Shown here one piece after another: positions 1 through 50,411 of a DNA stretch of 64,000 nt. Under the pieces are notes generated by a model. The model was not told where the DNA came from, ran no database searches, and saw only the letters and a list, made by a program, of their open reading frames with translations. The translations under genes were made by a program, and so were the position numbers. The DNA is from a virus: IMG/VR virus record IMGVR_UViG_3300009085_000027, positions 9,935 through 73,934 of that record. One strand, given 5' to 3'. The first letter of the stretch is position 1; every line of letters begins with the position of its first letter.

Positions 1-3000
1 GTGGGTTCCACCTTCACTTCCGCCCGTGATGTGTGGGTCGAAGAGTCCGCCAGGCTCGGGGCGGTCGTCCTTGCCACGAAGTGTACGGGTCGGTCGCTTG
101 ATTTCCCCTCGGCTCAGGGCGAGGGTCTCGGCATCAGTCCGCGGAATGATCCGAACGGTGCCTCCCTCGTTCTTCACGGTCGTGCCCATCGCTGTGAGCA
201 TGGCCTCGAACTTCTTGTAGACGAACGGGATCTGGGGCTTGGGTAGAACGGCGGCGCCGTTGGTCAGAGCGGCCCAGACCGCATGGGCCTGGGACTGGTC
301 CGACTTCAGGGTCTGCATTTCCTTGAGGTTGTCGTGAAGACCAGAGGCTAGAGCCGCATAGATCCCCAACGAGCCCAAGGACTGAGCTCCGTTGTGCCCA
401 CCACCACGAGGGATCTGGGTGTTGGCATCGTAGTGGAGCTTCGGCGTTCCCAGTGCTGGGAAACTCGGTCCGCCGCTGCGGACGTGGGTCTTCTTATCGA
501 TCTGGTGTTCGAGCTGGAACACGTAGTGGGGACCCACAGTGATGTCCCCGAGCTTCCTCCCCGTCTTGGGGTCGTAGAGAGCTTCTGTGTCCTTCAACCC
601 ATGGGACTTGAGCTCGCCCTGCAGCTTCTTCAGGTAGTCGACTCCGCCCTGGAAGTTCTTGACCACGTAGGCCTTGCCGGTCTTTTCCGCGATTCGACCC
701 GCGGCTGTCTCCAGGATCTGCCCCGGGTTGATACGACCCGGCACTGACACAGGATTGATCAAGATCTCAACGTGTTTGGACTCAGCATCATGTGGCATCT
801 CCTTGTCGGGAAGGATGCTGGCCACAATGCCCTTGGCACTGTGCCGGGTCGAGAGCTTCGACCCCACCTGGATTGGCTCCAGGGTCTTGACGTGGACCAC
901 GATTTGTCCACCCACGTTCTGGGCACGGACCACCTCACCGACATGGTCAGAGTCCCAGACCATGGAGGCGTTGTCATAGCGCTCACGTAGACGCTTGCCG
1001 ATCTTTGCAGCGGCTCGAGGGCCCGTGGCGATCAGCCTGGTATCTTCGTTGAGAGCCAGGACGAGTGGATCCCCGGGATGAACCTTGGTGCCGACCCTAA
1101 CGATTCCGTCGTCGCCAATCTTGTTGAGCTTGTCCAGGCCAAATACGGTGCCCTTGCTGCGGATAAAGCTCTTCTTGTCGACGGTGTGGTTGTCGGTGAC
1201 AAGCATGGAGGGCTTGTGCAAGTGCTCGGAGCTCAGCTTCTTCGCCGCAGACTCGGAGATTACGATGCCGTCTTCGTGGTTTGAGCCGTTAGCGATGTAG
1301 GCTACGCGGAGGTTAGTGCCGAGAGCGAGCTTGCCGCCCTTGGTGTAGTTGTTGTCTGCGACGATCTCTCCGGCCTTGACCTTGTCTCCGGGCTTCACCA
1401 AAGGTGTGGAGTGGAGTTCACCCTTGCTGTGGTTGGTCGGGTAGTGGTCGTAGAGGTCGACGGTGTGAGTCCCAGACTTCCCACGGATGACCACCTCGCC
1501 GGGCTTCACTGATACCACGACTCCGGCTTCCGGTGACTTTCGGGCCAAGAACCCGGAACCGACGAGGTCTTCAAAGGTGCGTCCGGCCCCGGCCTCGACC
1601 TGGACCTTGGGTGCTTCCCTTCCCGTGATGCTGATGGCCTGCGCCATGTGTCGGGCGCTCATCGTGCTGCGTCCGGCGCTGTCATTCTGCATGAACGGGA
1701 CGAGATTGGTCTCCACGGTGAAGACCTGTGTCGCCGACGGCATCACGTAGTGGGCATCACCCCAGGGTAGGTCGTCACGGATCTGGCCGTGACCATCACT
1801 CATCCTGGTGGTCTTCCCCCGCGGCGTTGGCTTGCCGCCCTTCCACACCACCTGGTCTGGGAGGATCACGGAGCTCACCGATGCCCTTGCGGCATCGACG
1901 TCCTCGAGCTTACCGGTGCGCAGGTTGTAGAGCCGGATGTGCGGCTTTCGATCCTTGACGGTGACTCCGAAAGCCTTGTGGGTGTTGACCCCGGTGTTGG
2001 ACTCCGGGGTGTAAACGGGGTCCAAGAATCCGAGGTGGCTGGGGTCCAGGGCGGTGTTGGACTTCGACAGTGCGTGCTGATTCTGGATGCCACCAGGCCC
2101 GGTGATGGTCACCAGGTTGTTGTCGCTGATCATTGTCAGCGGGTTGGTCTGCTTACCAACGGAGGTCAGCGACGTGGTGAAGACGTGATTCAGAGGGCGC
2201 TGAATCAAGTCAGGCATGAAGACGTCACGAAGGACCTGACGATCTCCAGAGGCTAGACGGCGTTGAACCGTGGGCTTGCTCAAAGCCTGCTGGACTCGGC
2301 GGGTGATTTCCGGGGAGGCCTGAGCGATACGCTCCATGAAGTGGTCCTTGGCCGACCACAACTCCTTGTACCGAAGGCTGTCGATTGGGTCGGGATCTTT
2401 GCGACCCGCACTGACATCCAAGAGCTTCTTCGACGCCTCAAAGAGAAGGGCGGCATTGACCTGAGAGGTACGCACCCCGAGATTGGCATGAGCCACTTCG
2501 GGGTCCAGCTTCGTGGACTCAAAAATCGCGTGGGTCTCATTGCGAAGATCTGCGGTGCTCGCCGGAGCTTCCTTCCGCCACACCTCGTAAAGGGACCGAA
2601 GGTTCTTGTCCACACTGGCCTTGGACTTCGAGGCGTGGAAGGTGGACTCACCCCAGGCCTTCTTCATGGCCTCATCCGTCACACCCATTGTGCTGAGTAC
2701 GGAGTAGAGCGGGATCTTGCGGGACCCCACCTTCATGTGGATGTACCCGGACTCATCGAGCTGTACGTCGAAGCTCCTGCCTTTGGCGAGCTGGAACTGG
2801 GCTTCGTACTCCCCTGGCTTCTCCGTGGCCTTGACGTAAGCACCTGGACGAAGACGCCACTGGTTCGCGATGGACTTCTCCTGCCCACCCATGATGTAGG
2901 AGTAGTGCCTGGTGAGCTTGGGGATCTTAGCGATCAGGGCATTGGGACGAGACACCACCGTCTTGTTCTCTTTGGTGTCAACGACCTCGATGGTCCCCAG

Positions 3001-3207
3001 GACTGGTACAGCCCAGGACTTACCCTCCAGCCGGGCCTTGGCCTGACCCTTGATGTCATCCGTGCCCAGGTGATCATCTACAGTAAGTCCGCTTACGCGA
3101 ACCTCGAATCGACCAGACCGATCTTTGATCGGAAAGGTCCCACTGATCTGTGTGAGGAGTTGTTCCTTGAGCTCCTCGAACTGGGCTTTTGGGTCGGAGG
3201 TGAGCAC
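1..3207 (-). CDS. rpoBC: DNA-directed RNA polymerase, fused beta (RpoB) + N-terminus of beta-prime (RpoC); runs off the left edge
   Basis: Manually translated, GTG start at 3207. RpoB motifs IPKLTRHYSYIMGGQEKSIANQWRLRPG, NHEDGIVISES, VGSKLSTRHSAKGIV, INPVSVPGRINPGQILE and AQSLGSLGIYAALASGLHDNLKEMQTLKSD are followed in frame by RpoC-like ALSRGEIKRP...RPEPGGLFDPHITG. The ORF track lists no ORF in this frame, consistent with no stop. Confidence 0.95.
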   Translation of the reverse strand, partial: MLTSDPKAQFEELKEQLLTQISGTFPIKDRSGRFEVRVSGLTVDDHLGTDDIKGQAKARLEGKSWAVPVLGTIEVVDTKENKTVVSRPNALIAKIPKLTRHYSYIMGGQEKSIANQWRLRPGAYVKATEKPGEYEAQFQLAKGRSFDVQLDESGYIHMKVGSRKIPLYSVLSTMGVTDEAMKKAWGESTFHASKSKASVDKNLRSLYEVWRKEAPASTADLRNETHAIFESTKLDPEVAHANLGVRTSQVNAALLFEASKKLLDVSAGRKDPDPIDSLRYKELWSAKDHFMERIAQASPEITRRVQQALSKPTVQRRLASGDRQVLRDVFMPDLIQRPLNHVFTTSLTSVGKQTNPLTMISDNNLVTITGPGGIQNQHALSKSNTALDPSHLGFLDPVYTPESNTGVNTHKAFGVTVKDRKPHIRLYNLRTGKLEDVDAARASVSSVILPDQVVWKGGKPTPRGKTTRMSDGHGQIRDDLPWGDAHYVMPSATQVFTVETNLVPFMQNDSAGRSTMSARHMAQAISITGREAPKVQVEAGAGRTFEDLVGSGFLARKSPEAGVVVSVKPGEVVIRGKSGTHTVDLYDHYPTNHSKGELHSTPLVKPGDKVKAGEIVADNNYTKGGKLALGTNLRVAYIANGSNHEDGIVISESAAKKLSSEHLHKPSMLVTDNHTVDKKSFIRSKGTVFGLDKLNKIGDDGIVRVGTKVHPGDPLVLALNEDTRLIATGPRAAAKIGKRLRERYDNASMVWDSDHVGEVVRAQNVGGQIVVHVKTLEPIQVGSKLSTRHSAKGIVASILPDKEMPHDAESKHVEILINPVSVPGRINPGQILETAAGRIAEKTGKAYVVKNFQGGVDYLKKLQGELKSHGLKDTEALYDPKTGRKLGDITVGPHYVFQLEHQIDKKTHVRSGGPSFPALGTPKLHYDANTQIPRGGGHNGAQSLGSLGIYAALASGLHDNLKEMQTLKSDQSQAHAVWAALTNGAAVLPKPQIPFVYKKFEAMLTAMGTTVKNEGGTVRIIPRTDAETLALSRGEIKRPTRTLRGKDDRPEPGGLFDPHITGGSEGGTH

Positions 3208-3213: not shown

Positions 3214-3219
3214 AGTTTA
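3214..3219 (-). promoter_or_regulatory. putative -10 box TAAACT, 6 nt before RNAP GTG (leaderless start)
   Basis: Same geometry recurs at six other starts. Confidence 0.55.
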
Positions 3220-3260
3220 CTCGCCTTGAAACGACAGGGTCAACGCGGGTCTCATCCATC

Positions 3261-3277: not shown

Positions 3278-3282
3278 TATTC

Positions 3283-3411
3283 ATGTTAGATCCAGCCGAA
3301 GACAGCCTAAGCGACTATGAGTCGTCGCTGTCTGACGCCCTTTTCTGGGACATCGAAGACACCGGGGACAGTGACGATTCAGAGTCCGAGGACGAGAAAG
3401 ACGGGGACTAG
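3283..3411 (+). CDS. small highly acidic protein (42 aa)
   Basis: GGAGG RBS then ATG; MLDPAEDSLSDYESSLSDALFWDIEDTGDSDDSESEDEKDGD. This is the 3' end of the listed 2263..3411 ORF. Confidence 0.65.
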   Translation: MLDPAEDSLSDYESSLSDALFWDIEDTGDSDDSESEDEKDGD

Positions 3412-3414
3412 CCA

Positions 3415-3510
3415 GTGGCATCAATCTTGATTTGGAGTTTCGTGGGTGGGTTCCTTGCCGGTCTGCTGGACGGTTTCCGTGAGTCTGGGATCTGGAGTTT
3501 GTTCGGATGA
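3415..3510 (+). CDS. small hydrophobic peptide (31 aa)
   Basis: GTG start after GGGGA; MASILIWSFVGGFLAGLLDGFRESGIWSLFG; fills the gap exactly and has an ATGA overlap with the next gene. Confidence 0.55.
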   Translation: MASILIWSFVGGFLAGLLDGFRESGIWSLFG

Positions 3511-3857
3511 AGTCCAAGGCATCCAGGGATCCGAGCGTTGAAATCAACACGCCGGAATGCCTGTGCTGTGCCGACCAACTGGAGCTACACGAGGAGTCCT
3601 TCGTCATGCTCCGTGGCGTTTGGATGATCTCTTCGGGGACGGGTCTACCAATCTTCGTATTGGACCCAGACACCGGGAACATCTGGGACAAGCTACCAAA
3701 CGGTCAGACCGTGATCGTCACAGATTACTTTGGACCCACGAAGCACGCCCACAAGGAATGCGTCGAGCGCCTGATCGACGAGGAGCTCGATGACGGGGTC
3801 ACAGACTCCGATGGTTTTGACGATGACTACGCCAACCTGGATACCGATCGGTACTGA
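3507..3857 (+). CDS. hypothetical protein, possible Zn-binding, acidic tail
   Basis: CLCC...HKEC; tight operon spacing. Confidence 0.7.
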   Translation: MKSKASRDPSVEINTPECLCCADQLELHEESFVMLRGVWMISSGTGLPIFVLDPDTGNIWDKLPNGQTVIVTDYFGPTKHAHKECVERLIDEELDDGVTDSDGFDDDYANLDTDRY

Positions 3858-3859: not shown

Positions 3860-4996
3860 ATGTATAACTACTCCCAAACCAAAGAACTTGTTCGACGCGA
3901 GCTACTGGCCCAAAACGCGGCTGTGGTGGCCAGGTCTTCTCAGGCCCTCAACATCCCACTCCTCCTGGGTCCTGTGGGTGGTGGCAAGACCAGTATCGCT
4001 CGGGGATTCGCTATCGAGTTCGGGCTCCAGCTCTGCGCCATCAACTCGGGAGAGAACTCCGATGCCACGGACCTGAGTGGTGTCCCGGTCCCGTCTAGAA
4101 TCGTGTCGAAGGAAGACAAGATCCCCTACATGCAATGGGTCTTGAACCGCTACGCCGCTACGGCTTGCTCGGAGCCGGTGTTTCTGTTCTTCGACGACTT
4201 GGACAAAGCACCCCCGCCGGTGCAGAGCGCACTACTCGGCATCACAGCCACCCGGATGTTCCGGGACCAAAAAATACACCCCGGCACACTCATCATGGGG
4301 GCCGGCAACCGCATTGATGACGACATCAATGCGAATGAGATCTCTGAGTCCCTGCGAACCAGGATGACCATCATCGAGATGTCACCGGATGTCATCTCAT
4401 TCTCCAACTACGGTGTCAGCAGCGGAGAAATCCATCCCGCCGTGATTGGCTACCTGCAGTACAAACCAGAGCACCTCTACAAGCACGAAACCGGTGTCAA
4501 TCGATTCCCCTGCCCCCGTGGGTGGTGGGAAGTGTCCCAGCAGTTCAGGCTCTTTCCAGATGCTGAGGAAGACCTCTTCAGCAATGGAGCCAAGGACAAC
4601 TGGAAAGGTATCGTTGACCGCAAGTGTGGTTCCCACATCGGCAATGACTTCTGGGCCTGGTACCAGGTCATCTCCAAGGTCGATATCAAGGGGATCCTCT
4701 CCGGGTCTTCTCGGCTTCAACAGGGCTCGGACAATGACCGCAGGATGTCGCAGTTCGCGGCGATCTTCGCCATCTCACAGGAGCTCAACCTGCGTGGGGT
4801 GAAGGCCGAGTACATCGGGCTGCCCACATTCGTCACGGACCTAGATCCTGAGATGCGGGTAGCGTTTGTCGTGCAGATCTCTCAGAAGGTGAGGGTCAGC
4901 ATCTCCACGATGTTCCCCGCCGCAGCCAACACCATGATGGCTCAGATCGTTCAGTCACAGAACGGGAAGAGTCGTCTCCAAGGGGCCACCCCATGA
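3860..4996 (+). CDS. MoxR-like AAA+ ATPase
   Basis: Walker A GPVGGGKT, DLSGVP, Walker B FFDDLDK, AGNR, SLRTRM, PCPRGW. Confidence 0.9.
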   Translation: MYNYSQTKELVRRELLAQNAAVVARSSQALNIPLLLGPVGGGKTSIARGFAIEFGLQLCAINSGENSDATDLSGVPVPSRIVSKEDKIPYMQWVLNRYAATACSEPVFLFFDDLDKAPPPVQSALLGITATRMFRDQKIHPGTLIMGAGNRIDDDINANEISESLRTRMTIIEMSPDVISFSNYGVSSGEIHPAVIGYLQYKPEHLYKHETGVNRFPCPRGWWEVSQQFRLFPDAEEDLFSNGAKDNWKGIVDRKCGSHIGNDFWAWYQVISKVDIKGILSGSSRLQQGSDNDRRMSQFAAIFAISQELNLRGVKAEYIGLPTFVTDLDPEMRVAFVVQISQKVRVSISTMFPAAANTMMAQIVQSQNGKSRLQGATP

Positions 4997-6216
4997 TAAA
5001 CAAGGCCAGCATCACAAACCGGGACGCGCATGAGGCAGTGCATGGCGCGATCACCGAGTTGATGATGCGATTCCCCCTTGCAGGACTATCCTGCTTGGGG
5101 GAGGCCGTTGTGATCGAGGAATGCAGCCATGCTGACAGCCTCAACACCGACGGCCGTTCCATCAGGTATTCACCGCATTGGATCATGCAGTCCACACACC
5201 GGGGTCGTATTTTTGATCTCCTCCATGAGTGGCTGCACATCTTCTTCAACCACGTTTTGAGGTGTCAGGACAGAAACCCCGAGGTGTGGAACATGGCCTG
5301 CGACATCATCGTTGTGGCCGAGGCCTGCAGGGTTCTATCCACCCCCAACGACACGTGGGAGCCACCCACAGACGGGGTGATACCTCCACCGTGGTCTGTG
5401 GGGCTCACCACTGAAGAGATCTATGACAAACTGGTGTCGAACCCACAGTCCAAGCCCCAGCCGAAGAGGCCAAAACCAGAAGGCACCGACACGCCTTCGA
5501 TTCAGGACTCATCCGACCTGAACTATGCCGGGGCCAAGGCCCTGGAAGCCAACCCGGAAAAGGAAGACGAGTTCTACCGCAAGTTCTCTTCCGAGCTGGC
5601 CCAGGCCAACCTGGTAATGCAGCAGATCTCGAACAAGAGCTCTGAAGACCTGTATGGCCCGGTGATTGGGTCGCGACTGAACCAAGTGCTACGCGGCAAG
5701 ATCCCTTGGAGTCGCCTGTTGAAGGGCGACATGCTGAAAGCCTTGGGGGATGAGTTCACGTCGTACTCACCACCAAAGATGAGGTACTACCCAGAAATCA
5801 TTCTTCCGACACTGAAGTCTCGACAGGAGAAGACACTTCTCATCGCCATCGACGACTCAGCCAGCGTCGGGGAGCGTCTGCACCGCGAGTTCGTAGCCAA
5901 TGTCATGCCTGCTGCGAACCGAGCGGAGTGGACTGTAGTAGTCACCTTCGATCAGATCATTCGAGAGACCATACGAACCAGGAAGCCGAAGGACATCATG
6001 AAGCAGGCCAAGTTCCTCAGTGGCATCCACTCCTGCACTGATGTGAGGCCGGTGTTCGAGTTGGCCAAGACAGTGAAGCCGTCGGCGATCGCTATCCTCA
6101 CCGACGGCTTCCTCTCGATACCAGACAAGCCAGTGCCCAACACGTTGTGGTGCATTCCCACCAATGGAAAATCCCAGCCCTGGGGGAAGAACTACGTCAT
6201 GGACATTACATGGTGA
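4993..6216 (+). CDS. metallopeptidase-like (HExxH) + vWA domain protein (DUF2201-like)
   Basis: LLHEWLH, WNMACD, MIDAS DDSASV, LTDG; typical partner of MoxR ATPases. Confidence 0.88.
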   Translation: MINKASITNRDAHEAVHGAITELMMRFPLAGLSCLGEAVVIEECSHADSLNTDGRSIRYSPHWIMQSTHRGRIFDLLHEWLHIFFNHVLRCQDRNPEVWNMACDIIVVAEACRVLSTPNDTWEPPTDGVIPPPWSVGLTTEEIYDKLVSNPQSKPQPKRPKPEGTDTPSIQDSSDLNYAGAKALEANPEKEDEFYRKFSSELAQANLVMQQISNKSSEDLYGPVIGSRLNQVLRGKIPWSRLLKGDMLKALGDEFTSYSPPKMRYYPEIILPTLKSRQEKTLLIAIDDSASVGERLHREFVANVMPAANRAEWTVVVTFDQIIRETIRTRKPKDIMKQAKFLSGIHSCTDVRPVFELAKTVKPSAIAILTDGFLSIPDKPVPNTLWCIPTNGKSQPWGKNYVMDITW

Positions 6217-7586
6217 TTGATCTTATCGAAAGTGCTGCAAAGCAGATGATTTCTGATCGCATGTGTGCTGTGTACAGCACACATGAGCATAAGACCTGGG
6301 ATGCGATACTTCTAGCTCTGGGGGAGAAGGCGAAGCCAACACTAGGTGGTTTGTTGAGCCGTGCAATCCCTGAGCGAAGCATGACGAAGTACGTCGAGTT
6401 CGGTATCCACCCAAGCGGCGCTATGGATTACGAACTTCCGGTGGAGCACTACTCCAAGGGCCGACTCATGCAGTCGCACCCCATTCATCTCACCGCGATG
6501 TTTGGGGGCGTACTGCGTAGCCCTGGTGAAGCCAAGCGGATGTATGCGGAGCACCTCGGGATGAGACAGCAGAACTTGGATGCGTCCAGGGGCATTCCCA
6601 AGAACCCGAGATACCCGACTCCGACCTTCCATGGCTTGTGGGGTCAAACCCACGTCCCTGGTTTCTCGGCAGAAGACTGCGGCATCGAACCACTGGAGTT
6701 TGATGATGCTGTCGACAACATCCACTTCGCGGCGTGGTACACCCAGCCCAGTGTTCGAGCCATTGTGGAGCGGCGCTTGACCACGGATCAGATCCTAACC
6801 TTGATCTACATCACAGAGTACAGCTCTACGACCTGGAGGACTGAACTGCAGAGTGTGGTCTACGCATCTACGATGCGGGACTGTACTTCTGACAGGGGTG
6901 GGAGCTTCCATTACGCAGCCCTAGCCGAGCTCCTTGGGTTCTGTACCCCGGAAAAGGCCAGGGACGTCATGGATCGCCTCAAGGGGGCGAGACGAGTTCT
7001 GCTCATCACAAGGCCCGACTCCACAACCAAAGACATGACCAATGGGCTTCGCGCGTTGGCCACCACCAACAATGAGGAGACCCTCGCACTGTTGTCCCGC
7101 CTGGGCAGAACCCCAGCATTCGAGGAGCTCTCTGCAGTCAAGGGTCGTGGGCTGGTCGACATACTCTACTACATGCCGTGGGAGCATCTCGAAGCCATGC
7201 TTCAGAGAGACGAAGACAGGATTCGTGGACTCCTGCTACGTCATGTCGATGGCGACTCGATCAGCAAGGTATCAGTGTGCTTGGTCGATCACAGGCATAG
7301 AAGGATATCGGCGAAGTACAGATCGAAGGGGTTGGACTCGAACTGGTCTACGCACTATACCGCCCTGGCGACACAGTACACCGCATGTAGAGATCTACGC
7401 AGCAAGCTCCTGTCTGCTACGGGGTCCCCCTTCGTTGCTGTGATGGCGGCACTAGACGTACTCGACGACAAAGCCGACATGATCAGGTCCATGCTACAGA
7501 AGCACCCCGACTACCCCAAGATCGAGTCTGTTCAGTCCGAGTATCGCGCACTGCCCACCGATGCGCTGAGTAGTTTTCGCGGGTGA
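6210..7586 (+). CDS. hypothetical protein (~458 aa)
   Basis: Long ORF; ATG at 6210 overlaps the upstream gene end; no recognised motif. Confidence 0.75.
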   Translation: MVIDLIESAAKQMISDRMCAVYSTHEHKTWDAILLALGEKAKPTLGGLLSRAIPERSMTKYVEFGIHPSGAMDYELPVEHYSKGRLMQSHPIHLTAMFGGVLRSPGEAKRMYAEHLGMRQQNLDASRGIPKNPRYPTPTFHGLWGQTHVPGFSAEDCGIEPLEFDDAVDNIHFAAWYTQPSVRAIVERRLTTDQILTLIYITEYSSTTWRTELQSVVYASTMRDCTSDRGGSFHYAALAELLGFCTPEKARDVMDRLKGARRVLLITRPDSTTKDMTNGLRALATTNNEETLALLSRLGRTPAFEELSAVKGRGLVDILYYMPWEHLEAMLQRDEDRIRGLLLRHVDGDSISKVSVCLVDHRHRRISAKYRSKGLDSNWSTHYTALATQYTACRDLRSKLLSATGSPFVAVMAALDVLDDKADMIRSMLQKHPDYPKIESVQSEYRALPTDALSSFRG

Positions 7587-7607
7587 TGGGGTAGTTTCGG
7601 TGGTGAG

Positions 7608-7633
7608 AGAAGAGGCCTCTGGGCCTCTTCTTT
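7608..7633. terminator. intrinsic, probably bidirectional terminator
   Basis: AGAAGAGGCC-TCTG-GGCCTCTTCT-TT hairpin between convergent genes. Confidence 0.8.
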
Positions 7634-7635
7634 GT

Positions 7636-9498
7636 CTACCTCCGCGGCGGAAGTACCTCGGGTTGTGGCCGCATGTCCACTCCAGGCTGTGGGGGCTGTT
7701 GCGGGGGTTCGGGCTGCTGTTGCTCCGGCATCACGACCTGGGCCAACTCCGGTGACTCCACCCTGAGCTGGGCCATGTAGGCCTCGCGCTGCTCCGCTGG
7801 CATGGAAGAGACCCTGCGGGCCAGGGCTGCGGCGACGCTGTCCAGTGGATAGCCCCCGACCTGGTGCAGCCTCGAGCCCTGGGCCTCGGCAAAGGGGTCT
7901 TTGGACTTCGTGGTCTCAGCTGACATGGCCTTCTGTGCCGCGCCCTGGGCCTCGGCCTGGTACTTCGCTGCAACCAACTGGGCTTCGCCCTGGATGTCGG
8001 CCTGCAAGAGTTGCTGCGACCGCATAGCCTTGGACTTCAAGTCCACTTCTCTGGCCTGGAGATCGACCTCGTCATCGATCTTGAGGTCGGCGTAAGACAG
8101 CAACGTAGCATCAGAGATCTTACTCATCTGACTGAGCTGAGCCATGTAGGCCTGGCGCTGGAGGTCATCAGCCATGCGGAAAGGCTTGAACCGGCCATCT
8201 GGAACAGGCCAGTTCAGGAAAGCCCCCATGCGCTTCATCACCCAGTGCAACAGACGCTTGTGGCCATGAACATTGCTGAGGAAGAAGTTCTCTAGCATCC
8301 GCATGCTCACCGAGGTCCCAGCGTAGTTGCCGTGGCCGAAGACCAGGTCGATGGGGAACCCCATACCGACAGCGATCTGCTCAGACATCTGCTGAATCTC
8401 TGGCATCAGGAGAAGGCTTCGACCGTTCTCACCAATGGTCTGGTGGCCCACGGGGAACGGCAGAATCCCGATGTAGGCCGGGTCCATTCTTTGCCTAGCG
8501 ATCTCGCGACGGATGTGATCACGCCAGTCAGCTAGGTTGATCGTCGTGAAAGGGTCCGCCCCAGCCGTTGCGGGTTGGGGGAACAAGAAAGTCTGTGGCA
8601 CGAGGTGCTGAAGCAGGATCGCTTCCTGGGCCTTCTTCATGACCTGGACGTAGAAGGCGTCCTTCAGCACGGGCATGATCAGTGGGATACCCCAACCACG
8701 ATTCATCGTGCTCAGGCTGGGCCGGCGTAGGTGGAAGACCTCGTTGCGGTCGAACACCAAGCTGCGCTTTGTAGTCACGGCTTCGAGGAACACCTCTGGT
8801 GTCGTGGCTACGAGGTCCTTCCGTCCCATCATGACCTGGCTACGAAAGTCCGGGGACAGGTCCAAGCCGTAGTCCATCCGGCCGGTGGCCTCATTGTAGA
8901 AGATGTGGACGTACTCCGGGTTCCACCGGATCATATTGATCTCGGCGTACTTCGGGTAGTAATCATCCCGGCTCTTCGCGAAGTCGGTCTGTCCGCACTT
9001 CGGGCACGTCAGCCAGAACTTGTGATTCACGTACCGCCAGTGTGGGCGGCTCATCACGGCGTCATGCTCGGCGTTGCAGAGCGCGCAGATCACCTTCTTG
9101 CGGAATGGGAAGCTCGGGCTGACGAAGGCATTGCCGTAGACGTGAAAGTCCAGGTTGATCTCGAACTGGTGAACCCGGTAGTTCATCACTCCGAGAAGGA
9201 GCTCCTCCCACTTGTTCACCACGCCACGATCCTTGTGCTGAAGGATTAGGTCGGTGACTGGATACTCCGATGCCTTGGTGCAGATCGCGTTGATGATGCC
9301 GTGAGTCAGGTGATAGAACCTGCAGAACCCGAACAGGGCTTTGACTGTAGGTGGGGTGTAGGTACTGGCATGGTCGAAGAAGGGGTTGGCAAAGGGCTGA
9401 TACCTTCGGCCCAAGATCTGTGACCGACTCGCCGTACCCTCGAACTGTGCGGATCGTGAAGCCCCAAAGGCTGCGCCACCACCACTAAAGAACGTCAT
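7636..9498 (-). CDS. phage portal protein with Zn-ribbon insertion
   Basis: Portal-like pattern DFHVYGNAFVS, IRWNP, EVFHLRRPSLS...GWGIP, IAVGMGFP; inserted CALC...CPKC; Gln/Pro-rich tail. Confidence 0.75.
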   Translation of the reverse strand: MTFFSGGGAAFGASRSAQFEGTASRSQILGRRYQPFANPFFDHASTYTPPTVKALFGFCRFYHLTHGIINAICTKASEYPVTDLILQHKDRGVVNKWEELLLGVMNYRVHQFEINLDFHVYGNAFVSPSFPFRKKVICALCNAEHDAVMSRPHWRYVNHKFWLTCPKCGQTDFAKSRDDYYPKYAEINMIRWNPEYVHIFYNEATGRMDYGLDLSPDFRSQVMMGRKDLVATTPEVFLEAVTTKRSLVFDRNEVFHLRRPSLSTMNRGWGIPLIMPVLKDAFYVQVMKKAQEAILLQHLVPQTFLFPQPATAGADPFTTINLADWRDHIRREIARQRMDPAYIGILPFPVGHQTIGENGRSLLLMPEIQQMSEQIAVGMGFPIDLVFGHGNYAGTSVSMRMLENFFLSNVHGHKRLLHWVMKRMGAFLNWPVPDGRFKPFRMADDLQRQAYMAQLSQMSKISDATLLSYADLKIDDEVDLQAREVDLKSKAMRSQQLLQADIQGEAQLVAAKYQAEAQGAAQKAMSAETTKSKDPFAEAQGSRLHQVGGYPLDSVAAALARRVSSMPAEQREAYMAQLRVESPELAQVVMPEQQQPEPPQQPPQPGVDMRPQPEVLPPRR

Positions 9499-10445
9499 GG
9501 TGCCTCGACACGGCGGCGACCGCCGAGAAGACGGTTGGCTCCGTGCTCAAAAGCCATGGACGACGCTATTTGTGGGATCACGGGTAGGCCGCTGGTGAGG
9601 GCACCCGCAGTAACACCGCTTCCCAGACCCACGAGCTTCTGCCTCATGCTGCGCCCGCCAGTAGCGGACTCGTCCCCACGGGCCAGGTCAGGGACTGACA
9701 TAGCCACAGGAAGGCCGACGCCCAGCATAGCCCCGGTGCGTCCACCACTCATGATCTCACTACCCATGGCGCGTAGAGTACGCCCTGGAGCCGTGGTGAG
9801 TCCACGGGCAACGCCAGGGACGCTCGTGATTCCGGCGGCGAGTGCAGCGTCGCCGTGCTGACCCGCAGACCTAGCGCTTGCGATCTGAGCCTCCAGGCTA
9901 CTAGCTGCCGCTGGTGTCATGGTTTTGCTGGCCGCACGACGGCGAAGGAGGTCGATCTCCTTTTCAGCCGTAGCGGAGCTGCGCAACCCGATGTCTCCGG
10001 CACGGTCTGCATAAGCCCCGGTGAGTCCGTGAAGCTGCCGGGCACCAAAGTTCTTCACACTCCGGCCAATACTCTTGGCCGTAGCGCCTATGGCCTGCCC
10101 ACCACTGAGGCTGGGATCTAGGAGTCGAGTGTCTTGATACCGTCTGCCCAGAAGACCGGCGCCTCCGCCGATAGCAGCCCCCCGAAGACCACCGCGAAGA
10201 GCCGCAGAGCTACCACTCTCACCTTCACCTCTCGTGGCGTAGCCATGAGCGGCGCCGACACCAGCGCCGAGTAAGGCAGTCCTGGTCGGGGATTCCGCTA
10301 TGCTACGACCCAGGTTGCGGCCCAGGCCCATGAGACTCCCCGTAATGGGTGCTTGTCTAACCCCTTGGAGGGCACGGGACAGCACCCCAGTAGCCGCAGA
10401 CTCCTTGATGATCTGACCCGCCACACGAAGGCTTGCTGTATCCAT
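9495..10445 (-). CDS. Gly/Ala-rich putative internal virion protein
   Basis: Glycine-zipper-like hydrophobic segments; coupled to the portal gene. Confidence 0.7.
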   Translation of the reverse strand: MDTASLRVAGQIIKESAATGVLSRALQGVRQAPITGSLMGLGRNLGRSIAESPTRTALLGAGVGAAHGYATRGEGESGSSAALRGGLRGAAIGGGAGLLGRRYQDTRLLDPSLSGGQAIGATAKSIGRSVKNFGARQLHGLTGAYADRAGDIGLRSSATAEKEIDLLRRRAASKTMTPAAASSLEAQIASARSAGQHGDAALAAGITSVPGVARGLTTAPGRTLRAMGSEIMSGGRTGAMLGVGLPVAMSVPDLARGDESATGGRSMRQKLVGLGSGVTAGALTSGLPVIPQIASSMAFEHGANRLLGGRRRVEAP

Positions 10446-11362
10446 TAGCGCCCACCGATCATCCTGAGCTGCTGAACCAGTCTTGCCCGGATATCACGAG
10501 CATAATCCCACTCAATCAACAGATTGTACACCGCATTTCCCGCCGTGGTGTCGGGAAGACCGTCAAGGGCTTGGGCCAACGGCTTCTTCACCACGGATTT
10601 CCACAACCCCTCGGTCTCATCGCGCAAGGCACTGAACTCGTAGGGCAGGCGCTTCAAGTCCTTGGAGCCGCAGGTGATGCACTTGACGTCGTTGTCATCG
10701 CGGTGGACGGCGTGGCACGACGCACACTCAATCTGATTGCCCTCGAGCTCGCGCCTCGCGAACTCCAATGGCTCAGGGACGAAGGCGTAGCCCTCGGTGC
10801 GGAACACAGCGGCTACGAACTTGTCGACATCGAGGCCTGTGGTCCGCTTAGGATCAACGGCCTTCATGATGTTCACACCGCTGACGAGATGGCCGATCTC
10901 GGGCTTCTCGAAATACGTGAAGTTCGGGGGCATCCCACTCAGGGCTCTGCACACCCAGTGGAATACCTCCCACCGCCGCCATGGAGATGGCGACTGCAGA
11001 AGGGTGCGAGTGGCCAGGATCTTGGTCCACGACGCATTGGATACCACTAGGCCGTCGCGCTGCAGGGTGAGCTTCAGTACATCGGGGTGCCATTCCGTGT
11101 AGGGCTCGCCGTAGCGGTCGAGGAGAAGGAGGCCAAGAACCAGTGGATGTGCGTCGGGGTGCCTCCAGATGTTGGAGGCGTTCAGCGAACCCTGCTCGAC
11201 TCCTGCGGTCTTGACGTCGCCATCCAGGGTAGACGTGATGGCCGAGACAAGACCATGGACAGACACTTCCGGAGACTCCACGGGTTCAGCGTGGGTCTCC
11301 GGTTCGTGGTCCGCAGATCTCTGGCCCTGTGGCCAGGACCTGTACTGAGAGGGGTCAAGCAA
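10445..11362 (-). CDS. hypothetical head-module protein with CxxC...CxxC
   Basis: CASCH...CITCG; operon position. Confidence 0.75.
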   Translation of the reverse strand: MLDPSQYRSWPQGQRSADHEPETHAEPVESPEVSVHGLVSAITSTLDGDVKTAGVEQGSLNASNIWRHPDAHPLVLGLLLLDRYGEPYTEWHPDVLKLTLQRDGLVVSNASWTKILATRTLLQSPSPWRRWEVFHWVCRALSGMPPNFTYFEKPEIGHLVSGVNIMKAVDPKRTTGLDVDKFVAAVFRTEGYAFVPEPLEFARRELEGNQIECASCHAVHRDDNDVKCITCGSKDLKRLPYEFSALRDETEGLWKSVVKKPLAQALDGLPDTTAGNAVYNLLIEWDYARDIRARLVQQLRMIGGR

Positions 11363-11375
11363 GGTCTTATCCGGC

Positions 11376-12431
11376 TCACTCCGCGATGTAGACCAGGATG
11401 TAGGACCTCACCCCATCCGGAGCTGTGTTCGGGGTGTAGCTGCCGTTGGGCAACGCCGAGGCCGCATCCGCCACCGTGCCAGCCGTGGGCACAGTCCACG
11501 CCGTATCGTCGTCGGCACGGGAGAGTTCGCGGATTGCTACCGCAGCAATCGCGCCGTCCTCCTTGAGCTTGGGCAGACCCACGCTGGCCGTGATGTACCC
11601 GACAGTGGCGGTTCCACCGGCGCTGCTCATCGCAGGCTGCTGGATCCGTGTCACGCGCTTGAAGAACTTGGAGCCGTTCACCGTGGCCCCGCTGCTCACA
11701 GCGAAGGTCTCGGAGATGTCCGCATCGTTCTCGTCAACACCACTGATCGTGAGGTTGCCACCAGACCAGCTGGCGTGAACCGCGAACACAACGGTCATGG
11801 CCCGAGCCACCGACATCTCGCGGTTACCCACGCGGTCTCGGTTGAACTCGGAATCGACGTTGAGGTCCACAGCCGAGGTCGCAGCGACCAAGCTCGCGAT
11901 CGAAGCGGCATCCGCGGCCACACCAACAGCGACAGTGGCATCCACACCGCCCTGAGCGGGGAACGCCACTGAGGTGACCTCGCTGAAGTAGAGCGTGCCG
12001 GTGGTAGTTCCGGCGCCGGCGCCGCACGTGACGGTTTCGGTCTGGGCCGCACCACCAGCGTCCTCTCCAACCACCACCACGGCTCCGCCGGTGAAATGGG
12101 CGGGGGTGGTGCCAGCCGCGGTGATGGTCACACGCTTCGGTGACCGGATCAGGGCGGGTCCCGTGCTGGGAGCCAGCGCACCGGTCAGGGTAGCGCCGGT
12201 GAACGTCACTGGGGACGCTGCCGTCGCAGTGGCGACGACAATGCCATCGGCGTCGATAGCGGTCGTAGGCACCGCCCCGGTCTTGAAGGCATACGGCGCG
12301 ACAGCCTCCATAGCCTCGAACCCATGATCCACGTCCTGGCGAAGATCATAGATCTCACCGGACAGACCACCACCCGGCCTGACAAGATGCTGAAGAACCG
12401 CCTTCGCGCTTCCAAATGCCTTAGAACTCAT
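11376..12431 (-). CDS. virion structural protein with two tandem beta-rich repeats (decoration-like)
   Basis: Repeats VVVGEDAGGAAQTETV...LYFSEVTSV and TISGVDENDADISETF...KFFKRVTRI; GAGGAG RBS. Confidence 0.75.
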   Translation of the reverse strand: MSSKAFGSAKAVLQHLVRPGGGLSGEIYDLRQDVDHGFEAMEAVAPYAFKTGAVPTTAIDADGIVVATATAASPVTFTGATLTGALAPSTGPALIRSPKRVTITAAGTTPAHFTGGAVVVVGEDAGGAAQTETVTCGAGAGTTTGTLYFSEVTSVAFPAQGGVDATVAVGVAADAASIASLVAATSAVDLNVDSEFNRDRVGNREMSVARAMTVVFAVHASWSGGNLTISGVDENDADISETFAVSSGATVNGSKFFKRVTRIQQPAMSSAGGTATVGYITASVGLPKLKEDGAIAAVAIRELSRADDDTAWTVPTAGTVADAASALPNGSYTPNTAPDGVRSYILVYIAE

Positions 12432-12458
12432 GTGTCTTTCTCCTCAGTTTCGGTTGAC

Positions 12459-14021
12459 TTACACCACAGATGCCGCGAGACGGGACAGTACCACTTTTTG
12501 GGGGTCCGGCATGGACTTGAAGATCCCCACGGGGTCATTTTGGAATGACGTGGCGAACCCCTTGCCGAAAGTTTCGTCGAGCTTGGTGTAGCCATTCTCG
12601 GCGAGACTCTTGAGTTGTAGACCACTGACGTAGTCCGACCCCGAAGACCAGGAATAGGTTTCGTCCTTCTCGGACTTGGACATTGCAGACGCCAACTTAC
12701 GCGATCCGTACACCGCGCGATAGGGGTCAAGGAAACCCACAGAGGGTCGACCGTAGCTGGAATCCGCCCCGGTGTCTGCATCTGCGGACTTCAACATCTC
12801 CACCATGACGATCGCTGGAGTCCTGTGGAGCTCTTCGAGGAGGACGGTGTAGGACGCCTCCTTCTCCGTGCCCTCAAAGGATCGAATCCTGGCGATGAGC
12901 TCGGCCTCGATGAATGGGCCATAGTCGTCCCCGGCGTAGTCCAGTGCAGACCCGCTGACCTTGAGCCCAAAGTCATCAGCGCGCCGAACTAGGCTCTGGG
13001 CGAAGGCCCGGCGGTCGTCGAGATCGAATCCGTTGACATGCTCGTTGAAGTAGGCCTCGGCGATCTTGACCTGGTCAGGAGTGTCCAAGGCATAGCGGCT
13101 CTGTTGGGGCAGAGCGAACCGGGTAGCAGTGGCCACCTTCCGGATACTCGTGGGGCTGTCTTCCATAGTCAGGTCCTCAGAAGATAGCCAACCCTCCTCG
13201 ATGAGGCTGTACGCCAGCTTGGCGGCTGAGGTCTTCGCCGGAATGGCGATCCGGTTGTTGGGCGACGGCTTGGGGTTATGCCCTTGGATGTTCCCGCTGG
13301 TCGGCATCACCTCGGTGCCGTTGAGGTCGGCACGCTTCGACCCTGGCATGCCGTACCTGGGGTCTGGCTGGTCCTTCTTCGTCAGCGCCTTGTCGATGTT
13401 TCTGCGCGTCTTGCCGGGCTCAGAGAAGTCGGAGAGTGGTCCAAAGATGTGACCCGCGTCGGGGCCCTCACCGCGCTGCAGTGCGGCATCCTGGTCCGGG
13501 CTCAGCCGGATCTCACGACCACCGACCTTGGCACCCGATGCCTGGGCCTCACGTAGGGCGTCCATGTTCTTGCGCGCACTGGCCGACCCCGAGCGGGCCT
13601 TGTCCGCCATGTCCATGGCCCCGAAACCGACAGTGGCAGCACCCATCACGCGGCCTAGAACAGCTCGCTTCACCAGGGGCTCCGGGGGATCCAAGTCGTA
13701 CCAGGCACAGGCGTTGATCAGGTTGGCGGCCACCTTCTCCTGGGTCTTCTGTGGCAGAAGTCCGCCGCACTCCAGGAAATAGATGATCGATGTCGTGAGG
13801 TGGGACTCATCGTGCATTGCGTACTTCCGCAAGATCTCGCCGTGGTTCTCTGCGACAAGGGCAAACAGCCTGTCTGGGATACGGTCGAGGTCCTCGACAT
13901 CCAGGAGCTGAGAGGACGCCAGCTTCGGCGGGATCCCAATCCCGGTGGCGGCTACCTTCTGCCTCAAGACGACGCCCTTGGGGTCGTCGTAGATGTCGAG
14001 CACGATTCCGGCGATACGCAT
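12459..14021 (-). CDS. hypothetical head-associated protein, K-x-A rich (520 aa)
   Basis: Long ORF leading the head operon; about 11 K-x-A motifs. Confidence 0.8.
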   Translation of the reverse strand: MRIAGIVLDIYDDPKGVVLRQKVAATGIGIPPKLASSQLLDVEDLDRIPDRLFALVAENHGEILRKYAMHDESHLTTSIIYFLECGGLLPQKTQEKVAANLINACAWYDLDPPEPLVKRAVLGRVMGAATVGFGAMDMADKARSGSASARKNMDALREAQASGAKVGGREIRLSPDQDAALQRGEGPDAGHIFGPLSDFSEPGKTRRNIDKALTKKDQPDPRYGMPGSKRADLNGTEVMPTSGNIQGHNPKPSPNNRIAIPAKTSAAKLAYSLIEEGWLSSEDLTMEDSPTSIRKVATATRFALPQQSRYALDTPDQVKIAEAYFNEHVNGFDLDDRRAFAQSLVRRADDFGLKVSGSALDYAGDDYGPFIEAELIARIRSFEGTEKEASYTVLLEELHRTPAIVMVEMLKSADADTGADSSYGRPSVGFLDPYRAVYGSRKLASAMSKSEKDETYSWSSGSDYVSGLQLKSLAENGYTKLDETFGKGFATSFQNDPVGIFKSMPDPQKVVLSRLAASVV

Positions 14022-14028: not shown

Positions 14029-14034
14029 ATCGTA
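14029..14034 (-). promoter_or_regulatory. putative -10 box TACGAT, 7 nt before ATG 14021
   Basis: Leaderless geometry, no SD. Confidence 0.5.
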
Positions 14035-14063
14035 CTTCGCTGTGGGGAGTTGGGTCAAACCTA

Positions 14064-14087: not shown

Positions 14088-14705
14088 ATGCTCACGGATG
14101 CGCGCAGTCTGGTTCGAGGACAGCAAAAGGATAGCCCAATCCAGGGCAAACAAAAAAACTGCAACACATGGGGGGAATACGAACCCGCCGGGACCTCCCC
14201 CACGGCAAAGCTCTGTAACGGTGGTAGCTTCGAGGGGGAGTTCTTCGAACCCTGCCCGGCTCGAGAAGAGTGTCGGTCCAGGACCCGACAAAGGGCGGCG
14301 TCCCAGGACCGAGTTGAGGTCAGGACTTCTCAGGAGAGACCTTTCGGGTCAAGTCTGTTGTACCCAGGTGATCAACCCCTCACCCGGCGGGAGGAACCAT
14401 ACCGGTGGAGTCCCGATAGGGTTCCTACGTCAGCCCCAACCCGCCCGATCCCTGCTGTCCAGCCCATCTCTCTCCAGCCCACTGCTGTAATCCCACCAGA
14501 CACCAACCCAGTCGCCATGCAGACGCCCTATGCGTCCCCTATGGCAGCAAACCCGGCTGGGAACGTGTCCCCCACTTTCTTGCCCGTAGCGGACGAGAAT
14601 GTTTGGTCCCGCCTGGGACGAAACATCACCCAGGGCTGGCTGAACTCCACGGGCTGGCATGCGTTTGACTTCACCCGGAACGTCGACCTATTTAGGCGGC
14701 GATGA
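14088..14705 (+). CDS. hypothetical protein, 4-Cys cluster and Pro-rich linker
   Basis: GGAGG RBS; ATGA overlap with the helicase. Confidence 0.75.
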   Translation: MLTDARSLVRGQQKDSPIQGKQKNCNTWGEYEPAGTSPTAKLCNGGSFEGEFFEPCPAREECRSRTRQRAASQDRVEVRTSQERPFGSSLLYPGDQPLTRREEPYRWSPDRVPTSAPTRPIPAVQPISLQPTAVIPPDTNPVAMQTPYASPMAANPAGNVSPTFLPVADENVWSRLGRNITQGWLNSTGWHAFDFTRNVDLFRRR

Positions 14706-16554: not shown

Positions 16555-16555
16555 T

Positions 16556-48291: not shown

Positions 48292-48948
48292 TCAGTGGGA
48301 CAAAGCAGCGGCTGGGGCGAACCTATCAATGGCTCGCTCCATCAGCTTCTTCCCTGCCAGTGATGCTGGGCTAATCCCTGGCACGGGGACTGGTTGAAGC
48401 GGGATCTGTTCGGGGTTTCGGATCAAGGCCTTTCCACCGGTACGTACGGCCTTCTTCAGTGGGGCCGGTATACCAGCGGTGGCCTTGTGTAGTTTGCGCT
48501 CCAGCGGGGCTTCTACCCTCCGCATCCCACGAGTCACTGACTTCTGCAGCCTGGCCAGCTCCTCTGGGCTTCGGTGTTTCATCAGAAGTCTTGGTGTGGA
48601 CTTGATCACCTTACCGACACCAGGGAGGTCCTCGACATCCGTAGCAGCTAGTCGGGTCAGGCGCTCAATCAGTGCAAGTTTGTCGGCACTGTACTTGTCA
48701 TTCGGCAGCTGGGGGTCGTAGTTCGTAGTCATCCGACTCATCGGGGGTCGGGCGTAGGAAGACCGCGGTGGTCTGTCCTGCGCGTTCTGTTGCCGAGGCC
48801 TAGTGCTGTCGGTGTCGTACACCGTTTTATTCAGACCAGCACGGCGATCTCTGGACAAAGGGTCCTTGCTGTTGAGTTCGGCGTTGTTGCTCTCCACCGC
48901 TTCCATCACGTTCTTGGCGAAGGACCGAAAGATGGGCTGTTCAATCAT
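48292..48948 (-). CDS. hypothetical basic protein
   Basis: ATGA overlap with the SNF2 gene; internal DKLA motif. Confidence 0.7.
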   Translation of the reverse strand: MIEQPIFRSFAKNVMEAVESNNAELNSKDPLSRDRRAGLNKTVYDTDSTRPRQQNAQDRPPRSSYARPPMSRMTTNYDPQLPNDKYSADKLALIERLTRLAATDVEDLPGVGKVIKSTPRLLMKHRSPEELARLQKSVTRGMRRVEAPLERKLHKATAGIPAPLKKAVRTGGKALIRNPEQIPLQPVPVPGISPASLAGKKLMERAIDRFAPAAALSH

Positions 48949-50411
48949 GGGGCCTCAGCTGCGAGCAGTTCTCGGACCTGTTGGTTCAACTGGTCCTTGT
49001 TTGCAGACATCGTACGCAGGTACTCGTCGACACCACCAGGTCGCTTGGCCCCAAAGAACTTCTTGATACCCCTGGGATTGGGGAGGGTGCTGACGTAGTG
49101 CTCGACATCCACGGTACGTTGGTCCTCGGGGAGCTTGGCATGGGACTGATACCGAATACCGCGGCCGATCACCTGCTCGAGCTTTTCCTTATTCCAGTGT
49201 GGATCCAGGACTTGAATCTGTCTGGTTCCTTTGAGATCCAGGCCCTCGCCACCGGCACTGCTCAGGAGAAGGGCTCGGAGTTTCCCAGCGTTGTAAGCGT
49301 CCACGGTCTCCTGGCGCTGACGCTTTGCCATGGCCCCAGTGAACTTTCCGTACGGGATGTTCTTGGCCTTCAGCATCGACTCATACGGCGAGATCCCTGA
49401 CTCCAAGAAGTTGGAGTAGACCAAGGCCTTGTGCTCCGGGTTCTTCTCGATGGCCTTGCTCAACCTGGTAAATGCCTCTTGCATCTTGGGGCTGAGCTTC
49501 GCGGCTCCTTCGGGATCGATGCCTTCGACGAATCCACCCGGTGACACCGCCACCTGGCGGGCCGCACCGAGGAAGGCATTGAGCTGCTTGGACTCCGCCT
49601 TGGACGGCGGCAATCCGCGCTTGACCTTGCGACGCACCCAGGCCGGGGCCTGACCCATCAAGGACTCGTAGACCTCCCGCTGCTTATCCCCCATGGTGGT
49701 CTCCACCACAGTGTCCTTGCGGGTTGGGAAATCCGGACCAGCGACGTTCTCGTGGTAGTCCACCCACTTCTTCAGCGCCTTGCCCAGCTCCGCCTTGTTC
49801 TTGAGCTCGGGAATACTACCCGGCTTGATGCCACGGAAGACACGATCAATAAGACCGGGGTTCACCTGTCGAGACCCTATGTAGCGGTTCTCGAACTCAG
49901 CCCTGTCCTGCGGGAACACCGAATCACCAGCCGCGACATTGACGAGGCTGGCCAGGTCATAAGGTCGGTTGTAAAGCGGGGTTCCGGTGAGAAGTAGGCG
50001 TTTCTTCGCCGTCGACTTGCGAGCTGCGTGCTGAGCCTTGGTTCCTGGGTCCCGCAGCCTATGGGCCTCATCGATCACCAAGAGATCTCCCCCAGGTAGT
50101 TCTCCGGAACGCGAGGCACGTTGAAGACTCTCCACCTTGTACTTGGCGTGGTCCTCACCGAGATGCTTTGCCATCTCCTTTCGGTAGTTGGCCTGCAAGG
50201 CCGCAGGAACCACCACCGTAGCCGGACCACCCAGCTCCTCTGCAGCAGCCAGGCTGCTCAGGGTCTTCCCGGACCCAACGCCATGGGCCACGACCAATCC
50301 GGGCTGAGACTTGATCCGCTGAACCACCCTCTTCTGGTGGGGTTTCAGCTCTGTGATTACTTCAGCCGTCTTCTCTGCGATTAGGCGAAGCGCGATTCGT
50401 ACTGGGTCCAT
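48945..50411 (-). CDS. SNF2-family helicase/translocase
   Basis: LKPHQ, HGVGSGKT, IDEAH, LTGTPLYN, GGEGLDL, DPHWN, QVIGRGIR. Confidence 0.93.
   Translation of the reverse strand: MDPVRIALRLIAEKTAEVITELKPHQKRVVQRIKSQPGLVVAHGVGSGKTLSSLAAAEELGGPATVVVPAALQANYRKEMAKHLGEDHAKYKVESLQRASRSGELPGGDLLVIDEAHRLRDPGTKAQHAARKSTAKKRLLLTGTPLYNRPYDLASLVNVAAGDSVFPQDRAEFENRYIGSRQVNPGLIDRVFRGIKPGSIPELKNKAELGKALKKWVDYHENVAGPDFPTRKDTVVETTMGDKQREVYESLMGQAPAWVRRKVKRGLPPSKAESKQLNAFLGAARQVAVSPGGFVEGIDPEGAAKLSPKMQEAFTRLSKAIEKNPEHKALVYSNFLESGISPYESMLKAKNIPYGKFTGAMAKRQRQETVDAYNAGKLRALLLSSAGGEGLDLKGTRQIQVLDPHWNKEKLEQVIGRGIRYQSHAKLPEDQRTVDVEHYVSTLPNPRGIKKFFGAKRPGGVDEYLRTMSANKDQLNQQVRELLAAEAP

Follow-up and report, generated by a model that had tools for sequence, protein, structure and literature searches.

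The stretch of DNA analysed here (the window, 64,000 nucleotides) covers positions 9935-73934 of the 73,934-base virus record IMGVR_UViG_3300009085_000027, which comes from an uncultured tailed phage. At its left edge a single open minus-strand frame occupies positions 1..3207 (1069 amino acids in the open reading frame (ORF) listing, with the 3′ end open at the edge), and this frame very probably makes up the 5′ half of an intact gene encoding the core of a bacterial-type DNA-dependent RNA polymerase (RNAP) of the two-barrel, multisubunit class, in which β and β′ form a single polypeptide. The gene extends 3 kb past the left window edge on the same viral contig, where the full ORF (contig positions 6923..13141, minus strand) starts with GTG and has 2072 codons and no internal stops. 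An initial annotation, made from the letters of the window, had claimed a continuous minus-strand frame carrying β and β′ in one ORF. The frame was confirmed as 1069 codons of the 2072-codon ORF, all peptides quoted in that annotation were found in the translation, and Pfam and NCBIfam domains of both subunits lie in one chain. Its estimate of a compact β part of about 1010 amino acids held, and the β′ part is about 1055 amino acids long, in a chain of about 230 kDa.

This phage is large, with roughly 165-175 kb of genome, and was sampled from freshwater sediment. CheckV estimated the 73,934-base record to be 45% complete, and the top-matching sequencing run for the contig is a freshwater sediment metagenome. 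Runs with small shares (soil, wetland and fungus metagenomes) were not used as evidence of habitat, and no RNA data were listed among the sequencing runs matching the contig. The RNAP gene is composed of the following parts:

1..3207, minus strand: first 1069 codons of the fused β/β′ RNAP gene (ORF listing, Pfam, NCBIfam)
178..3207, minus strand: β module, residues 1-1010 (Pfam, NCBIfam, structure model, Foldseek)
154..177, minus strand: junction, residues 1011-1018, TTVKNEGG (alignments, 104 family members, contigs reading through)
1..153, minus strand: β′ N-terminus, residues 1019-1069, with the site of the zinc-ribbon deletion at residues 1061-1067, TGGSEGG, window 7-27 (alignments)
Outside the window, contig from 6923, minus strand: clamp helices, DxDGD (contig 8921-8941), bridge helix/trigger loop region and Zn-II site

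Domains and fold of the fused polymerase

Both halves of the polypeptide were recognised by sequence models. Pfam Rpb2_3 matched residues 352-402 and RNA_pol_Rpb2_6 (PF00562) matched residues 566-914 (window 466-1512, E = 5.9e-51), and on the same polypeptide Rpb1 domains 2, 3 and 5 followed at residues 1355-1969, with domain 5 (PF04998) at 1670-1969. NCBIfam models of rpoB covered residues 251-1012 and those of rpoC residues 1113-2007, and sequence matches to β′ chains in the PDB went down to E = 1e-84. Further along the same ORF, where the initial annotation expected NADFDGD, the catalytic DxDGD was found as NADIDGD at residues 1401-1407.

Across 104 family members, the three catalytic aspartates of DxDGD and the four Zn-II ligands (cysteines 1718, 1779, 1786 and 1789) are invariant, and so are many further columns along both modules, including in members only 38-40% identical. 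Most members read GGD[IV]DGD at the catalytic motif, not the canonical NADFDGD. The whole 2072-residue protein (contig 6926-13141, minus strand) has four cysteines only, all of them Zn-II ligands, and this content is found in 97 of the 104 members.

Structures were modelled with AlphaFold 2 (AF2) as two halves from a 47-sequence alignment, with mean predicted local distance difference test (pLDDT) values of 83.2 for residues 1-1130 and 84.5 for residues 1005-2072. Foldseek aligned the first half with whole β chains of Mycobacterium tuberculosis (Mtb), Thermus and cyanobacteria, at template modelling (TM) scores of about 0.70 both ways over about 1100 columns, and the second half with whole bacterial β′ chains at TMq of about 0.8. 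Because the model of the first half aligns to whole β chains, the N-terminal 250 residues, which sequence hidden Markov models (HMMs) missed, can be assigned to the β lobe/protrusion region. In these predicted structures both modules are complete and compact. The enzyme has kept the Pfam-detected Rpb1 and Rpb2 domains along with all three catalytic aspartates and the cysteines of Zn-II; it lacks the β′ zinc ribbon as well as the lineage-specific inserts found in large bacterial enzymes. With Rpb2_6, DxDGD and a C-terminal module carrying Zn-II all present, the protein is a member of the large subunits of cellular-type two-barrel RNAPs.

These features also bear on the idea that the protein has lost catalysis and survives as a relic with a structural or DNA-binding role in the virion. 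Loss of the zinc ribbon, and the replacement of NADFDGD by GGD[IV]DGD in most members, would agree with such a relic. However, the three metal-binding aspartates, the Zn-II cysteines and many other columns stay invariant down to 38-40% identity, and inteins of relatives are situated within the catalytic motif and at other conserved sites, which is typical of strong functional constraint. We consider loss of catalytic function very unlikely.

Junction, family and origin of the fusion

The junction peptide TTVKNEGG had been named correctly, and the coordinates given with it (~160-183) were off by a few bases; it occupies residues 1011-1018, window 154-177. HMMER aligned Thermus β′ residues 3-51 to residues 1013-1062 of the protein, and the next matched block begins at residue 1113, opposite residue 180 of E. 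coli β′. The junction was further aligned by MAFFT with Salmonella RpoB plus RpoC, Salmonella phage Arash, Vibrio phage D69 and Cobetia phage Carin-5. In this alignment the bacterial β C-terminus (...GINIELEDE) pairs with ...GTTVKNEG, to about residue 1018, and the β tail joins β′ directly at about bacterial residue 19, leaving the first ~18 β′ residues without counterpart. Moreover, the zinc ribbon of ~31 residues (CxC...CxxC in Salmonella) is reduced to TGGSEGG, and no cysteine occurs in aligned residues 1010-1120 in any of the 104 family members. The earlier guess that the β′ zinc ribbon is deleted is borne out by this gap and by these missing cysteines, and the four-cysteine N-terminal β′ zinc ribbon (Zn-I) by which bacterial rpoB/rpoC are recognised is absent. 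In the AF2 model of the β′ half, strands at residues 1009-1013 and 1018-1022 flank the junction with pLDDT of about 87. We take the corresponding strands of bacterial RNAP to pair across the subunit boundary, in which case the fusion would make a hairpin of that pair.

Two adjacent genes could also appear fused if assembly or sequencing had introduced a frameshift between them or lost a stop codon. Nothing was found in support of such an artefact. The junction is continuous and conserved in 104 independent members from many assemblies, and it is crossed free of indels by Logan contigs of two separate studies, one contig differing by 45 substitutions; neither the stop nor the frameshift that the initial annotation had proposed to look for is present in them. 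In addition, because the first ~18 β′ residues are missing, the junction offers no room for a stop and a restart. An artefact can therefore practically be dismissed.

The gene is not a lone find but one member of a very large family. More than 100 clusters (90% identity) of proteins of ~2070 amino acids were found in a large protein collection, with 98-100% query coverage and 52-78% identity, and an additional group in the same collection lies at 38-40% identity. The enzyme is a single chain in all 104 members, the query frame is unbroken through residues 1490-1545, and contigs of the family reach about 200 kb. Metagenomes from sediment, soil and freshwater contain the family in abundance, and public records label its proteins 'beta-prime subunit' or 'hypothetical protein'. 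Several relatives (P0003, P0017, P0040, P0041, P0059 and others) carry inserts of ~350-535 residues, and in most of these Pfam recognised intein or homing-endonuclease domains. The inserts follow query residues 796, 820, 968 and 1406, the site at 1406 being inside the catalytic motif (DxDG|D); P0040 has two inserts and the copy in the window none. In the Vibrio phages D181 and D148, a homing endonuclease gene lies between the two RNAP genes.

A scan of the genomes of 185,579 species found the family only on three phage-sized contigs of metagenome-assembled genomes (MAGs). Two carry single ORFs of about 2060-2080 amino acids at 33-34% identity, and the third, at 37% identity, has a 2478-codon open frame reaching the locus edge. 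The bins are labelled bacterium, Desulfatibacillum and Anaerolineales. A host assignment from these bins was rejected, and the three contigs were treated as mis-binned phage.

Phylogeny was reconstructed with IQ-TREE by a quick method (26 rows, 2006 columns), with support given by the Shimodaira-Hasegawa-like approximate likelihood ratio test (SH-aLRT). All 18 fused sequences fall together (SH-aLRT 99) as sister to Arash plus D69 (98), and the three sampled bacteria form a separate group (100). In this sampling the fused sequences are not placed inside a host rpoBC clade, the position that according to the initial annotation would have spoken for a cellular gene. Because bacterial sampling is thin and the root is unplaced, the tree does not decide whether the full fusion or the split form is ancestral.

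In accordance with this tree, an origin as a cellular rpoB-rpoC pair or fusion, recently captured or lying on a chimeric or contaminating contig, is already refuted by these results. The enzyme is clearly of bacterial type, and it partially matches the NCBIfam models of fused Helicobacter- and Wolbachia-type polymerases, as such an origin would predict. However, scores against the equivalogs TIGR02013, NF001616 and TIGR02386 were all under half of the cut-off (411.1 versus 963.5 bits for rpoC; 294.5 versus 896 and 263.2 versus 801 bits for rpoB), and those against the fused models NF007172 and NF011417 were 386 versus 5372 and 349 versus 4632 bits. The protein shares about 20-28% identity with bacterial enzymes, its gene has phage structural genes around it in conserved synteny, the sampled bacteria group apart with full support, and the scan of species' genomes gave only the three phage-sized MAG contigs.

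Gene context, promoters and a virion role

The RNAP gene lies within a module of virion and packaging genes. Downstream, a gp5-like spike gene on the same strand overlaps the RNAP stop codon by 8 nt, and is followed by two unknown genes and then by the large terminase gene (TerL); upstream are a portal homologue and head genes. This order is kept in four IMG/VR relatives. With its viral contig and with portal, spike and TerL as neighbours, the polymerase is phage-encoded, as the initial annotation had claimed. The portal homologue marks a virion-module context common with Arash, and the SNF2 helicase is a candidate RNAP-associated factor by analogy with that phage. Promoter-like elements and other features of the window are as follows:

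3214..3243, minus strand: sigma70-like promoter TTGACC-18 nt-TAAACT, ending 6 nt before the RNAP GTG start
14029-14058, minus strand: the other exact instance of this promoter, heading the head-gene operon and ending 6-7 nt before the start codon
3261, 14064 and 30715, plus strand: CTATCAG, then 5-6 nt, GGAGG and ATG, heading three non-structural units
3284-3411, plus strand: 42-codon ORF, extremely acidic (about half D, E or S), with a good Shine-Dalgarno (SD) site, directly opposite the RNAP promoter
3860-6216, plus strand: pair of a MoxR-like AAA ATPase and a DUF2201 metallopeptidase/von Willebrand factor A (VWA) protein, between the portal and RNAP genes
7636..9498, minus strand: portal homologue, 27% identity to Arash portal gp204
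14702-26458, plus strand: replication block with DEAD/ResIII helicase, DnaB-like helicase, family A DNA polymerase with 3′-5′ exonuclease, and RecA-like protein
32375-47018 and 53881-61088, minus strand: six very large ORFs (787-1324 amino acids) without a Pfam match above threshold
48945..50411, minus strand: SNF2-family helicase, 39% identity to Arash gp217
52790-53737, minus strand: patatin-like phospholipase, among large, presumably structural genes
61470-62366, minus strand: sulfotransferase, among large, presumably structural genes

Among these features, the MoxR-like/DUF2201 pair is conserved in close relatives and absent from that position in Arash. One of the six very large ORFs encodes a 1233-aa protein with a PKD-domain match below threshold, and the ORF at 39471-43445 (minus strand) has weak similarity to the Arash structural protein gp13. 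No tRNAs were found in the window. A 136-aa minus-strand ORF upstream of the RNAP gene (3281-3691) was rejected as probably spurious, plus-strand ORFs with SD sites filling this stretch.

Both instances of the first promoter-like element follow the pattern TTGACC-18 nt-TA(A/C)(A/G)(C/A)T, 6-7 nt before a start codon. In relatives whose protein is 69% and 53% identical, TTGACC-18-TAGACT-6-GTG stands in the same place with an unrelated spacer sequence, and the element before the RNAP gene is kept in the relatives L005, L007 and L008. Such conservation implies a phylogenetic footprint of a predicted promoter that would give leaderless mRNA, and the RNAP gene is probably read from this host-type -35/-10 promoter as a leaderless transcript. 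For the relaxed motif TTGACN-17/19-TAnnnT the contig shows no enrichment (4 found versus 2.8 expected from shuffles), and the weight is carried only by the two copies 6-7 nt before a start codon and by their conservation in relatives. From the leaderless GTG starts and TAnnnT -10 boxes, our guess is a host of actinobacterial style. The second element, CTATCAG, stands at 3261 and 14064 back-to-back with the two TTGACC promoter instances. The contig has nine CTAT[CA]AG sites, all of them on the plus strand, and relatives have CTATCAG or CTATAAG in the equivalent place. These sites may represent a phage-specific promoter class.

Partners of the core were sought on the contig and in two complete relatives, G001 and G002 (172 and 169 kb, rated 100% complete), each of which has exactly one RNAP gene. 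An α subunit was not found in G001 or G002 with Pfam RNA_pol_A_bac and RNA_pol_L, models whose controls match in 14 of 14 reference genomes, and Pfam Sigma70_r2, Sigma70_r4 and RNA_pol_A_bac had no match in the contig of the window. A homologue of the Arash sigma factor gp10, 276-284 amino acids long, is present in both complete relatives (E = 9e-21 and 2e-16), and a three-sequence profile of Arash gp10 and these two copies matches regions 2-4 of RpoD, RpoS and SigA (E = 1.7e-9). It is on this homology and this profile that the relatives' gene is identified as sigma. Thus the search for alpha and sigma that the initial annotation had suggested gave sigma in the complete relatives, none on this contig, and alpha in none of them. 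The description 'single-chain' holds for the core, which is one polypeptide; the complete relatives additionally encode the sigma70-family factor.

We lean towards an enzyme that is synthesised alongside the structural proteins, is packaged in the capsid and enters the cell with the DNA, there to transcribe the first phage genes, by analogy with Arash. Packaging is suggested by the proteomics of Arash virions and by the conserved position of the gene in the virion/packaging module. In mass spectrometry of Arash virions, gp206, the larger of its two RNAP proteins, ranked first with 3516 spectra, and gp216, sigma gp10 and helicase gp217 were also among the proteins detected (PMC10585845). After delivery, the fused core would bind the phage sigma and start transcription at phage promoters. 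The covalent fusion would replace the alpha dimer as assembly platform, and would secure a 1:1 stoichiometry of both modules in the capsid.

Alternatively, the same fused RNAP may not be carried in the virion. The host RNAP would then transcribe its gene from TTGACC-18-TAnACT after infection, and the new enzyme, with the phage sigma, would take charge of the middle and late genes, in the manner of the non-virion RNAPs in phiKZ-type phages. The host-type -35/-10 element, conserved with exact spacing before the gene in relatives, is in agreement with this course of events, as is the single RNAP per genome, compared with the separate virion and non-virion enzymes of phiKZ-type phages. However, the RNAP gene heads an operon with spike and terminase and adjoins the portal gene, a position conserved out to Arash, and in virions of Arash it is the enzyme that gives the most spectra. 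Moreover, late synthesis with structural proteins is what a packaged enzyme requires. We regard purely non-virion action as possible but rather unlikely, and the two roles are not mutually exclusive.

Several points limit the interpretation as a whole. The virion location in Arash is carried over across only about 27-30% identity, which is a long extrapolation, and the conserved host-type promoter would equally suit an enzyme that is produced after infection and stays outside the virion. For this family, catalytic activity, dependence on sigma and packaging are predictions from sequence and analogy. The tree was made by a quick method with bacteria sampled as three from two phyla. Pfam Sigma70_r2 and Sigma70_r4 do not detect the sigma-like gene of G001 and G002, and no sigma gene lies in the present 74-kb fragment; since this fragment is estimated to be only 45% complete, the absence says nothing about the whole genome.

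Combining these elements, we tentatively suggest that the fused chain and the sigma70-family protein, working without alpha or omega, could be the smallest self-sufficient bacterial-type transcription machine known, packaged and injected with the DNA. It might read the CTATCAG class before the replication and other non-structural operons, and the host RNAP, or the same core with a different specificity, might read the TTGACC-18-TAnACT promoters of leaderless structural operons, including that of the RNAP gene. If this were true, the transcription programme would be inverted relative to T7-like and T4-like phages. In bacterial RNAP, the alpha dimer is needed to bring β and β′ together, and the β′ zinc ribbon serves the control of termination and antitermination. 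Both are absent in this family, and the enzyme is attractive as a minimal model of sigma-dependent initiation and RNAP assembly, and of how so large a protein could be packaged and ejected. Core and sigma are, in addition, a candidate orthogonal two-gene transcription system.

Comparison with known polymerases

Cultured relatives are limited to Salmonella phage Arash and the Vibrio phages D69, D148 and D181, with about 27-30% identity to the fused RNAP. In these phages a gene of 1525-1527 amino acids holds β and β′ to just past the catalytic loop, and a second gene of 606-609 amino acids holds the rest; in Arash (OQ632216.1) these are gp206 (1525 amino acids) and gp216 (606 amino acids), with sigma gp10. 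Arash gp206 and Vibrio D69 0261 have the same β/β′ junction and the same zinc-ribbon loss in a collinear alignment. The difference is that β′ is cut after the catalytic domain in Arash and D69, giving two chains, whereas the phage of the window has one chain of 2072 amino acids. Homology to Arash goes beyond the RNAP to the portal, TerL and SNF2 helicase. In both phages the RNAP gene adjoins the portal gene, the Arash portal gene gp204 lying directly upstream, and the Arash helicase gene gp217 follows the gene for the C-terminal portion of β′. The Arash paper labels gp206 'beta subunit' and does not describe the fusion (PMC10585845). This fusion of β with the N-terminal part of β′ is a partial precedent that the initial annotation, in its comparison of RNAPs, did not name.

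The multisubunit-RNAP-encoding Caudovirales (mReC) of Weinheimer and Aylward (2020) are likewise tailed phages with deep-branching RNAPs recognisable by cellular HMMs. In the part of their Supplementary Data 2 available, phage rows give β and β′ as different ORFs, and the screen required NADxDGD and β and β′ genes of at least 800 amino acids each (PMC7481178). The phage of the window lacks separate β and β′ genes, and its motif reads NADIDGD. Because most members of the fused family read GGD[IV]DGD, the NADxDGD filter would exclude most of it. To judge from these parts of the mReC screen (separate ORFs, NADxDGD required), published surveys have missed a large clade (PMC7481178). Cobetia phage Carin-5 is a cultured example of the separate-gene layout, with a sigma gene beside the RNAP genes, and unlike the fused family it keeps the zinc ribbon.

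The RpoB-RpoC fusions of Helicobacter and Wolbachia have the same order, β then β′, in one polypeptide. These are cellular housekeeping genes of about 2840-2890 amino acids whose products work with alpha; the gene described here is about 800 amino acids shorter, lacks the zinc ribbon and belongs to a phage. Single-polypeptide two-barrel RNAPs carried in virions are represented by gp66 of crAss-like phage phi14:2 and by the tape-measure-fused RNAP of Thermus phage P23-45. The RNAP of crAssphage is too divergent for cellular β and β′ HMMs (PMC7481178). Unlike these enzymes, the present one aligns nearly end to end with bacterial β and β′, and its complete relatives encode a sigma70-family factor.

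Reviews of jumbo-phage RNAPs cover only split enzymes or very divergent single-chain ones (PMC7598289, PMC7824862), and our literature search, which left most subscription journals outside, found no paper on a fully fused cellular-type β/β′ in phages. The fused family is thus a variant, not found described, within the known phage-encoded cellular-type RNAPs. The RNAPs of phiKZ/AR9-type jumbo phages are relatives of cellular β and β′ without alpha, and one of their two sets is packaged in the virion (PMC7598289, PMC7824862). Those phages have 4-5 polypeptides, two sets per genome and no sigma, whereas the fused family has one chain, one set per complete genome and a sigma factor. This is the opposite architectural trend, and it widens the range of phage RNAP architectures in the direction away from the fragmented enzymes of phiKZ type.

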